A stretch of 64,000 nt of DNA from Vermamoeba vermiformis (Eukaryota). Position 1 is the first letter of the stretch, and every line of letters starts with the position of its first letter. Of this stretch, positions 31,306 through 61,740 are shown piece after piece. Both the position numbers and the translations under genes were made by a program. Location of the stretch: the NCBI GenBank assembly GCA_045837725.1, contig JBEWZL010000048.1:124001-188000 (forward strand), written 5' to 3'. The notes under the pieces were generated by a model. The model was given only the letters and a program-made list of their open reading frames with translations, did no database searches and was not told the DNA's origin.

Positions 31306-32928
31306 ATGCTCTCCCGAAGTGTAATTCGTACTTGTTTCACTGCTTCCAAGCAACCTGCTCAGGTAAGCTCTAAAGAATGCAACGGCACATCGGCTTGGCT
31401 GTTGAAGTTCTGCTCTATTCTCAAAGAGGGCCGTATTAATAATATCTTACTATTTAATATCAGATCGCACGAAGCTTCTCTTTATTGGCACGTGCAGCCT
31501 CAACCAAGAGAACCACTCAAAACTCAGCAGTAAAATCCCAAAAGAGCACTTTCACTTTGAACTGGACGGCGAAAAAATCACCTACTCAATTATATTTTGG
31601 TTCATTTATTCAAAAGAACAATTATACAACAGCCGGTGGTGAGTTTGAATTTTTAATATTTAATTTTCAAAAATATCTCCTGCTTACGATTTCTTTCGTT
31701 ATTCTTGTGTGATGCATTCATAGGGCTCTTCATCAAATTTTGCAAGATATTTACGGGAGTAGTCAGCAGTAAAATTAATAATTGACCGTTGTGGCCTTAA
31801 TCCAGAATTCCACTTGGCTTTATAATTCTTTCAAACCAATACTCGTAAAAATAACAAACGATTTAATGGTATATTTATTGATGCAATATTCGCGCAGGTG
31901 CTGCCGCTCAAAAGTTGGATGTTGTCGTTGAAGGCGAGACTTACAAACTAATAGTCAAATTGCCCTCATCAACTGAGTCCTCCGTCTTCGTGCTTAAGCC
32001 CATGGAGACTGTTCGCGATCTCATTAATGACATTCGAGAGGAGGACCCTAAGGCCAACACAATTGTTTTCCACTACACCGATGGCCTCAGGTACGACACA
32101 TTTCTGGCCGTTTGCGTATCAAATGTATAATAACCAATGCTATAACTAGAGTCTCACACTCGACTACTATCGACGACTTGCTTAAATCAGAGTTCCATTT
32201 GACTATTGAAGGCACCAAGTACCACGTAGTTCCTCCCAAGGAAAAGAGTACGTACAACTGAGACTCACCACGCACGTGCGTCCACAGGCAAATTTACGGT
32301 GCAACTTTATTGCCGTAAAATTGTTCAAAGGGCGCTATATTCCTTCACCTTCATACGATGGAGAACAACAAGCTGACTATTTTGTTCTAGTCCTTGACAG
32401 CATCAACGAGAATGTGCTCAGTGTGATGGATTTGCGCAGTCTGATGCACAAGGCTTACTACCACAGAATCTTGCTCCGCTTAGAGTCGGATAAACGACAC
32501 CACATGCCCTACAGGTAAGCATCCTTGCTTTCGAACGAACCAGGCCTTGTTTTTGCGCGGCGACGGGTCAATAACGGCCGTTTAGCTCAGTTGGTTAGAG
32601 CATCGTGCTAATAACGCGAGGGTCCCAGGTTCGATCCCTGGAATGGCCAGTTTTTTTTTACATTTTTTACATTTTTTACATTTGGTTCGGGTGGCAGCGC
32701 TGCAGTACCTTCGATTGATTATTCGCACCAACTAAGCTGTCTGCTTTGACGCTATGTGGCGCAATTTTCAAATTTTGGGCGCTTCATTTCACGGCTGTGA
32801 AGGGATGAGCTCGAGAGCAGTAACTTTACCCATGTTGTTTCTGCTCGTTTGTTTTATTCTGCGCTTGTCTTGCCAAGTGCTTCGAGTTGGTTCCAAAAAC
32901 TCGGACAAGAAAAGCGAAGTGGCGCAGT

Positions 32929-32959
<31 letters not shown>

Positions 32960-33979
32960 CCAGGATCGAAACCTGGCTTCGCTAATCATTTTTTTGATTC
33001 TTGAAAATCAAACAACGAGCAATATGATGGTACTTCCATGACTATGAATTACTCATGATTCAAATTATACCGTTTGAGACTGATTGCTCAATTTAATTTT
33101 TTTGGTCAGGCCTGATCCAGGGGTCAACGTAACCTGATACTGATCCTTTTTTTTAGTGAGTACTTGGAATGGTGCCGTGAGTACGGCTTGAGCGACGAAG
33201 AATCACTCAACTTGGCGCACCACTTGCACGAGGTTGGATTGATCTTGCACTTCGCTGGCAACCCCGAGCTCAAGGACTACATCTTCTTGAACCCTCAATT
33301 GGTCGCCAACAGCATCACCAAGGCCTTGCAATTGCGCTACATCAAGTACGTACCAAGTTCAGTTATAATAAGAGAACGCAACTAACGATTACGCTGCAGG
33401 AAGGGAGATGAACTTAAGATGGCTGAATTGGAAGCAATCAAGCAGGAATTGGCTCCTTTGCACGACCTTAAATGTACGTAATAGCTGAATTGGAAGGTCG
33501 TGTAATAATGGTACTGGCACTAATACTGTATAAATATAGTGACTTACGACGAACAAGCCGATAACTACGGCCGTCGAGTCTTGTTGTGGTCCGGCATCTA
33601 CTTGGCCGCGCAGTTCTCTTTGCTCGCTCGTCTCGTGTGGGTTGAGTTCAACTGGGACATTATGGAACCGATCACTTACTTCGTCACCTTGGGCACAATG
33701 ATCTGGGGTTACACTTTCTTCACCTTCACCAAGACCGACTACAGCTACCCTGCCTTCAAGGACCGCATTGCTCGTCGCAAGTTGCGCGCTATCTACTTGA
33801 AGAACGAGTTCAACTGGAAGAGATGGAACACTCTCTATCAACGCGCCAAGCAGCTCGAAGACGAATTGGCTTTGCCTGTTGCTGAGCGATTCACCACTCA
33901 AGATCCCAACAAGACTCGCTTGCCTAAAGTCCAAGCCTCAGCAATCTTGTCGACTCCTGATGCCGTTCAAACGAACTAA
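31306..33979 (+). CDS. MCU: Mitochondrial calcium uniporter pore subunit
   Basis: Mitochondrial-type presequence MLSRSVIRTCF; two TM helices flanking WDIMEPITY selectivity motif; long intron 32515..33156. Confidence 0.93.
32576..32649 (+). tRNA. tRNA-Ile(AAT), inside MCU intron
   Basis: GGCCGTT..AATGGCC-A acceptor stem, D arm TAGCTCAGTTGGTTAGAGC, anticodon arm TCGTG-CTAATAA-CGCGA, GTTCGATCC T arm, followed by a T-run terminator. Confidence 0.95.
32913..32984 (+). tRNA. Initiator tRNA-Met(CAT), inside MCU intron
   Basis: A1-U72 pair (AGCGAAG/CTTCGCT-A), three G-C pairs in anticodon stem (TTGGG-CCCATAA-CCCAA), GATCGAAA T-loop typical of eukaryotic iMet; T7 follows. Confidence 0.95.
33017..33089 (+). 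ncRNA. Candidate box C/D snoRNA, copy 1
   Basis: Terminal stem GAGCAA/TTGCTC, 3-nt bulge then C box ATGATGG (33024..33030), D' ATGA (33044..33047), C' ATGATT (33055..33060), D box CTGA (33080..33083); 73 nt. Confidence 0.72.
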
Positions 33980-34118: not shown

Positions 34119-35279
34119 TTAGTTCTTGGTAGACTCACGGCCGACGAGGGAGGTGTAGATGTCATCACCCAACATCTTCACACGCATGCTGGTGCCCATC
34201 AACTTGGACCAGTAAACAGCACGCCACATCCAGTAAGCACCGAGACCAGTGACGATGGCCTTTGATTCTGAACCTCGCTCAACAAATCCGTCTTCAGCAC
34301 CGACGTATTCAAAGCCACCAATGTGCTTGTATCTGAAGGGTGTTCGCTCTGTGGGGTCCTCGTAATTGCACTCAGATCTGTTGAATGCTTTGGCCAAGAA
34401 TGCTCCTTGTTGAGCAGCAACTAATGGGCATGGATTAATATTATTATTCATAATACAATAGCGCTGAGAAACATACCAGCAGCGGTCGAGGGCAAGCGAG
34501 TCAATCGAGCGTCGAACGATCTCAACAGACCAGCAAACTCTTCGCGGTCCAAAGTGCCGTCCTTGTTAGTATCAGCTTGCACGAACAATTCTTTCGAGTT
34601 GTTGGCGACTTCAAAGAGAGCTGGGAATTGACGAGCCAAGTTCTTTACCAACGCTTCGTATTCCTCAACATCGACGCGACCGTCACCGTTGACGTCAAGC
34701 TTTTTGAAGATTTCCTAGCACGTGGTGTGAGTACTGATTGCAATTGACAGCGCGAGTACTTACAACAGCCTTGTTGATCAATTTGCCCTGATCAATAGTG
34801 GCACAGTCACCCAATGCCCACACGTCCTTGGCACCATTGACGGCGAGTGAGTTGTCGGTGACGAGGGCGCGAGTGTTGTTCTGGCCCTTCAGCTTGGAGC
34901 GCAGCATGTTGATGAGTGGGTGAGGAGCACCGCCAGTGGACCACACGCACAAACCAAACGGTAACTTCACTGTCTCTTCGGTCTTTGTCTCGCGGTTGAA
35001 TCGCTTCACTGTCACGCTGTCCTTATCGACGGCAACAACGTGCTTCGACTTGACTACATTAACGCCCTTAGAATGGTGGTGCAAAGCCATGTCTGTGGAA
35101 ACAAAAGTCAAGGAAAACCAGATCTGGATCAGATCAAAAAAAATAAATCGAGCAATCAGTCTCAAACGGTATAATTTGAATCATGAGTAATTCATAGTCA
35201 TGGAAGTACCATCATATTGCTCGTTGTTTGATTTTCAAGAATCAAAAAAATGATTAGCGAAGCCAGGTTTCGATCCTGG

Positions 35280-35310
<31 letters not shown>

Positions 35311-36794
35311 ACTGCGCCACTTCGCTTTTCTTGTCCGAGTTTTTGGAACCAACTCGAAGCACTTGGCAAGACAAGCGCGAAAAGTTTGAATAAAGGATAC
35401 ATTCACTAATTGAACGATCGTAGAAGTTGTTGATGTGCTCCTTGGTCGAGACTAAGGTAACATTAGCAGTTTCAGCCAATGAAGGGAATTGTGGTTTGAG
35501 ATCTTGGTCGATGAATTCTGTTCGTGCACTGAGATTAGTAGTCGGCTCTAACATGTCGTCGAAAATGTGCATACCATGCAGGTTATGGGCAATTTCATAG
35601 GCGACAGGACTGCCTCCAACAATGACAAAGTTCAACAGCTTCTTCTTTTCCTATTGTTTAATACTTGCGTGTCAATAACAAATCCTTGGCTGTCATATTC
35701 TCCTCTTATAATCAGCTTACATCGTCAGATACGTTAGGCAGAGTGGCCTTCTCAAAAGCATCAATAACTTTCTTCTTAATGTTCTTCGCGTCTAATCATA
35801 TGATCGTTAATGAGCGTTATGCGGGCAATAATCTCTGAGCACGTACCTTGAAGGTCGCGCAAAAACAAAGTGTTCTTTTCAACGTCTTTCAGTCCTAAGG
35901 TGTTTGGTACGGAACCAACAGCAATGACGAGCTTGTCGTAATTGACAGTGAAGTCCTTGCCCTCAGCAGCTGTATAAATACGTAAATGCTAATGCCGAAT
36001 ATAACGATGCGCGATATTTCGTACTTTTGCATGTAACAGTCTTCTTGTTGATATCAATGTCAGATGCGCTGGCTTCATAGTAGTTCAAAACTTTGTTATT
36101 TCGCTTAGCAAAAGTGCGAATAGGCTCAGTAACGCTAAAATAAAATATAAATCAATATTATAAAATTTACCAAGATATTTTTGCCCTTGAAACCGGATTC
36201 GTTCTTTAAGTGATTTAAAAATTAAAACGTACCTTTCAGTAGTTGTGGATCCAACAGTGACATCGGGGAGACCAGGAGTGAATAGGAAATAATTTCTAGG
36301 AGAGACAACGGTCACATCAAACATGTAAGTGTTGATATTTCCAGCCATCGACAAGGCACCCCAGCCAGAGCCTAAAATTACGAGTTTTTGTTTGTTTGAT
36401 CCTGCATCTTTTTGTTTCAAACTGCTCTCTAAGGCCAAGCAAGTGTTAATAGCGGTATGGAAATCCAGATTGAAAAAACTTACCGTGCACATATTCGACT
36501 CCTTTATACACCAAAAAGCTACCACCAAATATCGACACAACTACAGATGCCTTTTCCAGATTGGACCACTTCTTGGCAGTGCGGCTGTTATTGAAAATTA
36601 AAAATTTAATTATTTATTACCTAATTATCTAAATAATGAATGATCAATACGAATGTGTATTGCAATATTATGTAATATTTTGTTGCCAATCAATAATCAT
36701 TTTTGCTGCATGTGAAGTATTACCCTGCGTTGGTGCGAGATTGCAGTCTCGTAGCAGTTCGCGAGCTAAGGAGCAATTTGCTGATTCTAAACAT
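34119..36794 (-). CDS. Type II (alternative) NADH dehydrogenase with EF-hands (NDB-like)
   Basis: Presequence MFRISKLLLSSRTATR, LVILGSGWG, VVSPRNYFLFTP, YDKLVIAVG, FVIVGG, WALGDCAT, EF-hands (ADVNGDGRVDVEEY, ADTNKDGTLDREEF), PFRYKHIG. Confidence 0.9.
35150..35222 (-). ncRNA. Candidate box C/D snoRNA, copy 2
   Basis: Identical to 33017..33089; the stem extends by one more C-G pair here. Confidence 0.72.
35255..35326 (-). tRNA. Initiator tRNA-Met(CAT), inside NADH dehydrogenase U12 intron
   Basis: Identical to 32913..32984. Confidence 0.95.
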
Positions 36795-59021: not shown

Positions 59022-61740
59022 CATGTTGCACCATAAGGATTTATATGCTTACAAAAGACCAAAAGGTACGCCACGCGGCCAATTAAATATGCCAGATCTG
59101 ATTCTATTTTATTCAATTATTCTTCTTATATTCGATTACAAATGATAATTAAAGTATTATTAATCACTATGATGTTATTAGGTGTGCATAAAGTTTTCGG
59201 CTTGGATTTGGAAATTCTTTGCAAAGCAGAACGACGCCACTGCCCAAAACTTATTATATGTATCATAGATTATCTAGAGCAAAAGTGTAAGTCGAAAATC
59301 GGAATTATTTGTTTAATTGAAATTGAATTGGATCGTTCAACAAAATCCGAACGAAATAACGAATTTCGTGTTTAAATAAGAGTTTAGCAATAAGAATCGG
59401 CACAACTTCGCATAATTAATTGTCCGTTATGCTCTCGTACACTTATCGAGCGAGGTTAATATCAATTTCAGCGAGATTTAATATAAATTTGTTGAAGGTC
59501 TCGATGAGGAACGCCTCTTGGCTCAACCTGGAAATGTGGCCCAACTAAAGGATGCCGTGGCCAAAATTAACAACGGTAAGTTGTCTGGAGGCAATAGGGG
59601 CGATATGTCGTTTCGTTAAATTAACGCACGGAATTTCGGAATCTAACGAACGAACGGGCAATGACCCACTCCTCTATCCAAATCTAACGAATTATAATAA
59701 AGGCAATCGTATCAAGTTTGAAGATTTAGGAGCGTACACAACGGGAGATCTGTTGAAGAGATTCTTGTCCGAACTGCCCGTGCCTCTCATCCCGAAAGAA
59801 ACATTCAAGCGCTTGACTGAAATCAAATCTGACGATCCAAAGCGCGAAGAAGAAACTATTGCAGTACTGCAGACATTGACTCATATTCAAGCTGCGACGT
59901 TGGAAGTCGTGTTGCAGATGTGCAAGTAAGCCTCCGAACTAAACAATGTGTCTCTAATTCTAACGTGACTTTGTAGACGAGTGACAATGCGCAGTGGCAC
60001 CAACAAGATGGACTGCAACAAATTGGGGCTAGTCATGGTTCCAGCACTGATGCCCTATGTCACTGACGTTGAAGCACAATCACTGACGCAGAGTCGTGAT
60101 GCAGTGCTCAAGGGCAATGAACTGTTCGAATATCTCGTGCCTGAAGTGGAGAGTCTGTTCAAGTGGGTACGTAGATTTATCGTCGGTCGTCATTGGCTGT
60201 CGTACTTACATGTATGTCAGAACACTCACCACCAGAAGCGATTGAGCACCAAGATCAACAAATTGAAGCACTTCAATAGACTCGCCGCTGCCCCTAATAC
60301 GCCCAAGCGAGGAGTGCGCATCTTGGCGCTGGACGGTGGAGGCATGCGTGGTCTGTCAGAACTCACCATTCTCTCGCACATTGCAAAGAAGTTGTACGGC
60401 GATAATGGACCTGAAAGCACTAAGGTAACGCATTTTACCTTGAAGAATTGACTCCGTGGATCCGAGACGGTGATCTGGTGCAGTATTGTTCGTACGGCAA
60501 GTAGTGACCCGAACACGCAGTTGAAAAGCGTCTCGGGCACGACCACACTAACAAGAATGCACCGCTTCCCGTCCGATCAGCGAAGTTAAGCTTGTTCAGG
60601 CCTTCTTAGTACTGGGGTAGGAGACTACCTGGGAATCGGAGGTGTTGTGCTCTTCTCTTTTTTGCTTTTGCTCCTCTTACCTGCAGTCTGTGCTGACTCG
60701 CTCTCTTTTTAGAAACTTGTCGCTTCATTCGACTTGATTTGCGGCACTTCTACCGGCAGTATCGTGGCCATGTCGCTGTTGAAGAACTCATTGAAGGACT
60801 GCGAAGACTTGTACTATAACTTGGGCTCACAAATCTTCTACAACTCGTATTTATACGCCACAGGTCGCTGGTGGCGATACTACCGCAGCGGCGATTACTA
60901 TGACGGCGAATCACTCTACAAGCTGTTCAGTGAAAACTTTGGCTCCGACATGATTGGCGAAATGTTCGACGCCAATGCCCCTCAAAAGGTAGCTAGTTCA
61001 TTGTGTAAACAATCATCGCACTTTAACTGACTTTATTTGCAGCTGTTTGTCACCGCGACAGATGCTACCAGTGACGTGTTCGATCCAGTGTTGTTCCGCT
61101 CTTACGAGAACAAGAACAGTCACGTGACTGGACACTCTAAAATCTCCGCACCACAAGCACTTCGCGCTAGTTGTGCAGCCCCTACTTACTTCTCTCCGTT
61201 GGTACTCGACGAACACAATTACATGGACGGTGGATTCATCTACAACAATCCCACTGAACTCGCCATCTTTGAGGCTCATGCTTTGTGGCCCGATCGTCCT
61301 ATTGAGTGGTAAGTCTATAATCAGTGGTATTCATATTCATAAGGCTAACAACATGTAGTATTGTTTCGGTTGGTACTGGCTTGCCTAAACCCAACCCTGG
61401 CTCCGAGAACGTGCTGTCACTGCTTGGCGAGATCATCGATATCTGTACCAACAGCGATGCTATTCACAAGCGAGTCTTGGCGTGGTTGGACTTCTTGCAG
61501 ATCAAGCCCAGTTATTTCCGCTTCGATGCCAATCCACCCATTGGCTCTCTCAGACTTGACACGGGTGACAAGCCAACACTCGAACAAATGTGCGCACAGA
61601 CCGAGGCCTATATGAACGAAGCTAAACAGACCTCTGAAGTTGAACGTCTGATGCAGATCTTGTCTGGTCAGCGAACTGGCTTCCTCACTGAGAACACTGT
61701 AAATAATACGAACAACACGAATGTGAATAATGCCAACTAA
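59022..61740 (+). CDS. RhoGAP-like domain + patatin-like phospholipase
   Basis: VFGLDL..CPKLIICIIDYLE, LLKRFLSELPVPLIP, NKMDCNKLGLV; patatin motifs LALDGGGMRG, GTSTG, ALRASCAAPTYF, DGG. Confidence 0.85.
60535..60653 (+). rRNA. 5S rRNA gene inside intron 60425..60712
   Basis: 119 nt; helix I GGGCACGAC/GTTGTGCTC, conserved CCCGTCCGATC..GAAGTTAAGC, TTAGTACT..GGAGAC..CCTGGGAA motifs; T-run terminator immediately downstream. Confidence 0.93.

Follow-up and report, generated by a model that had tools for sequence, protein, structure and literature searches.

Gene structure at the locus

The window analysed here is a 64,000-nt stretch of Vermamoeba vermiformis contig JBEWZL010000048.1 (positions 124,001 to 188,000, forward strand), and plain coordinates below refer to it. 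It contains a gene at 59023..61740 (+), the 5' limit of which comes from a rough gene model only, that encodes a fusion of RhoGAP (PF00620) and patatin (PF01734) domains, and this fusion is also present in the relatives P0001 and P0002. The exon at 60221..60424 (+), placed by contig joints and alignment with P0001, carries the start of the patatin domain with its GGGMRG motif, and the exon at 60713..60988 (+), placed by contig joints, Pfam and the P0001 alignment, continues PF01734 with GTSTG. Between them the reading frame and contig joints define a spliceosomal GT-AG intron of 288 nt in phase 0 (60425..60712, +), within which lies a 119-nt 5S rRNA gene of the majority type (60535..60653, +).

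An earlier note on this DNA had claimed a full-length, well-paired 5S gene inside a sense-strand intron that is spliced out of the mRNA, and each part of this held. The 5S gene matches the RF00001 covariance model over positions 1-120 with 104.7 bits (E 6.6e-22), with all helices intact and no non-standard pair flagged. Excision of 60425-60712 fuses the GGGMRG and GTSTG exons in frame, while the unspliced frame contains stops, and the two flanking exons align gap-free and end to end on the homolog P0001 (residues 216-281, then 282-373). Furthermore, a joint with GT..AG ends that omits the 288 nt was found in three of three contig runs (X1, X3 and X4, public and from separate studies, and RNA at a guess), and the other introns of the RhoGAP-patatin gene are likewise skipped in these contigs.

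The 5S gene is followed by a predicted oligo-T Pol III terminator (60658..60669, +), comprising T6 at 60658-60663 and T4 at 60666-60669, and preceded by a 5S-specific upstream element (60499..60534, +), of which the core at -36..-20 is conserved between species and -19..-1 is homogenised within each. TATA(A/T)A is absent at -45..-15 of the window copy and of all 63 copies described below; the terminator and the missing upstream TATA box were both read correctly at the outset. An 8-nt word at 60584..60591 (+) is the putative box A of the internal control region, judged by its likeness to the consensus. The box C region would fall at ~60614-60631 (+), following the box layout in PMC6562748. Two GATC sites at -76 and -63 (60459..60475, no strand) sit within a genome-wide GATC peak 60-120 nt upstream of 5S genes, and a branch-point-like motif, pyrimidine tract and acceptor are evident in the sequence at 60693..60712 (+). 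A second RNA upstream of the 5S gene, such as a snoRNA, was also considered and dropped because neither the whole intron nor its upstream part folded significantly (z -1.20 and -0.61, respectively) and an Rfam scan of the intron returned nothing besides the 5S.

The 5S genes form a dispersed, nearly uniform family

A 21-nt 5S core has 62 exact matches in the genome G000 (43.3 Mb) against none for the reversed control, and the upstream motif led to a 63rd copy, which carries a 1-nt insertion. These 63 loci were analysed, although a separate count gave 64 candidates and one may be unseen. The copies are unlinked and nearly identical, with 55 of the 63, including that in the window, being the same throughout, and all 47 RF00001 matches that were scored fall among the known 63 loci. 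Variant copies include the intronic L042, L043, L044 and L046, as well as L055. The gene had been called solitary, which is true locally, as there is no neighbouring copy, but not genome-wide, where it is one of 63 dispersed copies. No head-to-tail repeats were seen, in keeping with the absence of a tandem array noted before, and the nearest two copies in the assembly are ~18.5 kb apart; likewise, no 5S array was found in the G000 assembly, which may be incomplete, and the rDNA unit fell outside the analysis.

A single copy, L045, is truncated, and orphan upstream elements and partial copies are present at L002 and L006. At L037 a non-intronic 5S adjoins a DEAD-box helicase gene fragment, possibly at a rearranged or decayed locus. 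At L061:1999-2928 an antisense insertion of ~930 bp immediately precedes the 5S start; it has a 10-bp target-site duplication and contains a 280-codon open frame whose protein has no Pfam match. This insertion resembles the 3'-terminal part of a non-LTR retrotransposon and is reminiscent of elements that target Pol III genes, and the duplication that flanks this separate insertion is the sole one noticed, outside any systematic search.

Nearly all 5S copies occupy sense-strand introns

We curated each of the 63 fetched loci by hand, because the automatic intron score has a high null rate (333 of 1162 noncoding stretches pass the same threshold, so that it is weak alone) and its donor is often wrong. 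This placed 58 of 63 copies in sense-strand introns, with L038 and L039 added to a set of 56, none in antisense introns, and five outside introns (L033, L037, L045, L050 and L052). Confirmation at the RNA level applies to the window intron, and the placement of the other 57 relies on curated splice signals and open frames, with support from Pfam for 16 and from orthology for 19. Once four near-duplicate pairs are merged the hosts are 54 unrelated genes, including those for thymidylate synthase, glycogen synthase, a tRNA synthetase, kinases and a deubiquitinase, with a STATa Ig domain, which points to Amoebozoa, in one of them. In 16 of 55 scanned exon pairs the two exons flanking the intron matched one and the same Pfam family, 13 of them with contiguous model coordinates (in the thymidylate synthase host, model position 167 before the intron and 169 after), and no family spanned both sides in the remaining 39.

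Under random orientation the probability of 54 hosts to 0 is 0.5^54 = 5.6e-17, and for 54 of 59 the probability is P = 1.6e-21 given an expected sense-intron share of 0.32, a generous value from a rough window gene model that over-calls introns. A combined splice-plus-coding score preferred the sense strand at 60 of 63 loci and, above a score of 10, gave 48 sense to 1 antisense. GTAAG words were only modestly informative (33/63 sense, 14/63 antisense, background 333/1724).

The 5S host introns are long, with a median of ~394 nt against about 55-60 nt for ordinary introns in the window, and the distance from the 5S ranges from 58 to 1024 nt to the donor and from 58 to 461 nt to the acceptor. 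Eight of them also hold tRNA genes on the same strand. At L039 (G000:C13 near 413800) and L133 a long intron contains three tRNAs, a 5S and a partial tRNA-Ile, the flank of which matches a complete copy ~3 kb off.

Nearly all 5S genes have the upstream element and all have an oligo-T run

The core of the upstream element is at exactly -31 in 58 of 63 copies, and a run of at least four Ts begins within 10 nt of the 5S 3' end in 63 of 63, with non-intronic copies showing the same anatomy as intronic ones. Exact matches to the 16-nt element number 42: 40 of them immediately precede a 5S, and two are elsewhere inside 5S-host introns. The element was not seen upstream of the six U6 and four U2 loci viewed, which carry other motifs there, and we therefore rejected it as a general snRNA promoter. 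Since -36 to -20 is conserved between species, unlike -19 to -1, it is likely to be the functional part. We infer that the element may act as an external Pol III promoter element that replaces a TATA box. In a diverged relative (L066-L099) the upstream element and the first 5S bases are often in tandem, as 2-4 copies of ~53 bp.

The intronic positions are shared with a diverged relative, yet the genes evolve in concert

A metagenome scan gave 38 5S loci, of which 37, from three assemblies, were analysed for this relative and L083 was excluded from all analyses; some of the contigs are apparently chimeric at the 5S repeat, and both intron boundaries lie on one contig for 6 hosts. Codon positions 1-2 are 93% identical between G000 and the relative (1083/1160) and position 3 is 60% identical (347/580). 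The loci of the relative include 24 that correspond to 20 G000 hosts, and for 19 of these 20 the donor or acceptor is at the same codon, i.e. the same intron carries a 5S in both; L093 is the ortholog of the window intron, 5S included. In the twentieth shared gene (L049/L080) the 5S is in different introns in the two species. This conservation fits selection, but it also fits plain inheritance with the cassettes not being excised.

At position 25 of the 5S, all G000 copies have G and 37 of 37 loci of the relative have A, and in all 17 of 17 comparisons the upstream 36 nt match other copies of the same species better than they match the ortholog. Because the shared sites are old, and yet position 25 is species-specific and the upstream 36 nt resemble those of conspecifics, the sequences indicate that the 5S and its upstream element undergo concerted evolution among unlinked intronic genes.

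Cassettes enter or leave existing introns

For four of four hosts tested that carry a 5S only in the relative, the G000 ortholog has the same intron with the 5S absent; two of these introns are plain (~50 nt) and two hold tRNA genes instead. As judged from these orthologs, cassettes thus enter or leave pre-existing introns and do not create them, with the direction not readable from two species. Flanking sequence beyond the conserved unit is common to nine pairs of unrelated hosts (0 of 3000 shuffles). Three of the nine pairs lie on one contig, as do 22 of 1948 pairs overall, and three are partly similar through a shared tRNA-Met. In addition, two tRNA-Met copies in the window (32913-32984 and 35255-35326) share 244 bp, flanks included. 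Because the copied tract reaches outside the Pol III transcript, copying would proceed either by DNA-level duplication or conversion, or with intron RNA as template.

GATC sites are phased with 5S genes

The flanks of the host introns are enriched in GATC (127 versus 34 +/- 5), with a peak 60-120 nt from each 5S end, and beyond 150 nt GATC is phased with the 5S at a period of 150 bp (5S loci, +/-1200 bp). The phasing value in G000 was reached by 0 of 1000 shifted nulls downstream and 3 of 1000 upstream, and that in the relative by 43 of 1000. Weaker GATC phasing at ~150 bp is also found around tRNA genes. AT-rich words show the same period downstream of the 5S, and exon-intron spacing may for this reason contribute to it. 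ApT methylation occurs in linker DNA of several protists, with no periodic pattern in Acanthamoeba, according to bioRxiv 10.1101/2024.10.28.620566. As a lead, the phasing suggests that 5S copies could act as protein-bound barriers.

tRNA genes share the intronic placement

Many tRNA genes follow the same pattern, which is most pronounced for 5S. Of the 30 tRNA loci with the highest scores, two lie on an organelle-like contig; as sense introns 16 of the 30 exceeded a score of 10, and none did so as antisense introns. By eye ~19 of the 28 nuclear ones are intronic, with weaker Pfam support, and strict automatic curation of these loci was unreliable. In the window, a 642-nt intron at 32515-33156 (+) contains a tRNA-Ile (32576-32649) and a tRNA-Met (32913-32984), both sense, in a gene that by a motif resembles the mitochondrial calcium uniporter. 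A further tRNA-Met at 35255-35326 (-) appears to sit in a sense intron of a gene on the minus strand that by eye is type-2 NADH dehydrogenase-like.

The four main U6 copies look intergenic, and L141 and L142 are divergent U6-like variants with an altered 5' stem and a 3' extension. At L146 (G000:C202:320789-321007) a divergent U2-like RNA that scores 57 bits appears to lie in a sense intron of a protein-coding gene; it has a TATA box, a T-run and, upstream, a motif of the U6 type. There are three further weak U2-like matches. G000:C309 carries mirrored clusters of organelle-like tRNAs and is probably inverted-repeat mitochondrial sequence.

Discussion

The earlier note suggested a functional intronic 5S gene, and this is the best reading of the locus: 54 other copies have exactly the same sequence as this one, which comes with a fixed-position upstream element and a terminator and occupies the same intron in the relative. 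What that description missed is that an intronic 5S is the normal arrangement in this genome and that a conserved non-TATA element lies upstream. The sequence evidence makes it highly probable that this is a type-1 Pol III 5S gene nested in a Pol II intron, one of ~63 dispersed copies that are nearly all sense-intronic. Each copy would be transcribed alone from its internal control region and the -36..-20 element and stop at the T-run, and the host would splice the 5S out together with the intron. The cassettes would spread by DNA-level copying that carries flanks of variable length, with gene conversion keeping them uniform, and antisense insertions would be removed by selection or never made. 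Selection against antisense copies is the most likely candidate cause of the sense-only placement, and could act through head-on Pol II/Pol III traffic or through pre-mRNA complementary to an abundant rRNA; intron-to-intron copying with orientation kept would possibly reinforce the bias.

An absolute sense bias, 58 to 0, is also what would be expected if the 5S were processed from the excised intron in the manner of intronic snoRNAs, either as the sole route or in addition to Pol III, and PMC4999229 gives a sense share of only 56% for the intronic tRNAs of C. elegans. The X3 and X4 contigs, moreover, run from a 5S into intron-like flanks of other copies, which may represent pre-mRNA or DNA. 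The copies do share with snoRNAs a sense orientation in a spliced intron, but they do not lack a promoter element and terminator of their own: the upstream element is conserved across species at its fixed position (58/63), the T-run is present at 63/63, the non-intronic copies have identical anatomy, and the distances to donor (58-1024 nt) and acceptor (58-461 nt) are highly variable, all of which makes such processing unlikely. It also enters a broader proposal, which we consider speculative and rather doubtful, in which Pol III genes and Pol II introns are coupled as a system, with 5S and many tRNAs at least partly intron-processed or host-dependent, intron RNA templating oriented moves of the cassettes, and bound cassettes phasing nucleosomes over the host genes (the ~150-bp GATC period).

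The copies could also be inert retroposed pseudogenes or a 5S-derived SINE, with the real 5S elsewhere, for example in an unassembled array, and their dispersal, the truncated L045, the orphan elements and partial copies at L002 and L006, the possible incompleteness of the assembly and an rDNA unit outside the analysis would all suit this. We nevertheless consider it very improbable, as 55 of 63 copies are identical even though 19 sites are older than the split of two species that share only 60% identity at third codon positions, all 47 scored RF00001 matches are among the known loci, and the upstream flank is copied along, unlike that of a retroposed mature 5S; in place of copies that start at +1, lack the flank and decay independently, there is homogenisation across the species. 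Alternatively, the cassette could be an introner-like mobile element that creates its own host introns, for which strict sense orientation is expected and which would account for host introns of about 394 nt at the median against about 55-60 nt. Set against this are the orthologous G000 introns that exist without a 5S in 4 of 4 cases tested, so that insertion does not create the intron there, the gene at L049/L080 that carries the 5S in different introns between species, and the splice sites, which are outside the conserved unit at variable distances; an introner origin is accordingly extremely hard to sustain.

For the functional intronic 5S gene, the component parts are known, namely 5S genes, dispersed families and intronic Pol III genes, and what is new relative to the literature searched is a near-complete, strictly sense, cross-species intronic 5S family. 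No such family was described in that literature, which included few subscription journals, and "5S rRNA" was absent from the text, supplements aside, of the amoebozoan genome papers PMC7125106 and PMC4053784. With about nine in ten 5S genes in sense-strand introns, this is a mode of arrangement absent from the searched literature. It offers a case of concerted evolution of unlinked rRNA genes with known orthologous positions and a mappable homogenised tract, as well as many natural replicates for the sharing of one template between Pol II and a very active Pol III gene, and for selection on orientation. In practical terms, rRNA will turn up in dozens of housekeeping genes when such amoebae are annotated or sequenced by poly(A)-independent RNA-seq.

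The described arrangements of 5S genes are tandem, rDNA-linked, linked to other repeats, or scattered, and dispersed nuclear 5S genes occur in filamentous fungi, fission yeast and Acanthamoeba, where they are not known to be other than intergenic. The family reported here is like those of fungi and Acanthamoeba in comprising tens of unlinked, near-identical Pol III genes, some of them by tRNA genes and homogenised without an array, but differs in that 58 of 63 are in protein-gene introns, all sense, with a non-TATA upstream element. Intron-encoded snoRNAs are structured RNAs on the sense strand of host introns that move between hosts in evolution, and the intronic 5S genes resemble them in siting and host switching, but appear to have kept a promoter element of their own, along with a terminator. 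5S-derived SINE3 elements likewise place a repeated unit in many unrelated genes, whereas the copies here are full-length and homogenised, with the upstream flank copied along.

That 5S genes can be dispersed is also stated in PMC6562748. Introners, as presented in PMC9860276, similarly insert a repeated unit into many unrelated genes, whereas here the introns pre-exist. A parallel in the placement of Pol III genes within Pol II introns comes from Caenorhabditis tRNAs, for which PMC4999229 likewise describes host pairing that is conserved across species. By that study's figures, introns contain 44% of the C. elegans tRNA genes, a share expected by chance, and 56% of these intronic genes are sense, whereas the genes described here are ribosomal, and are 92% intronic, far above chance, and 100% sense.
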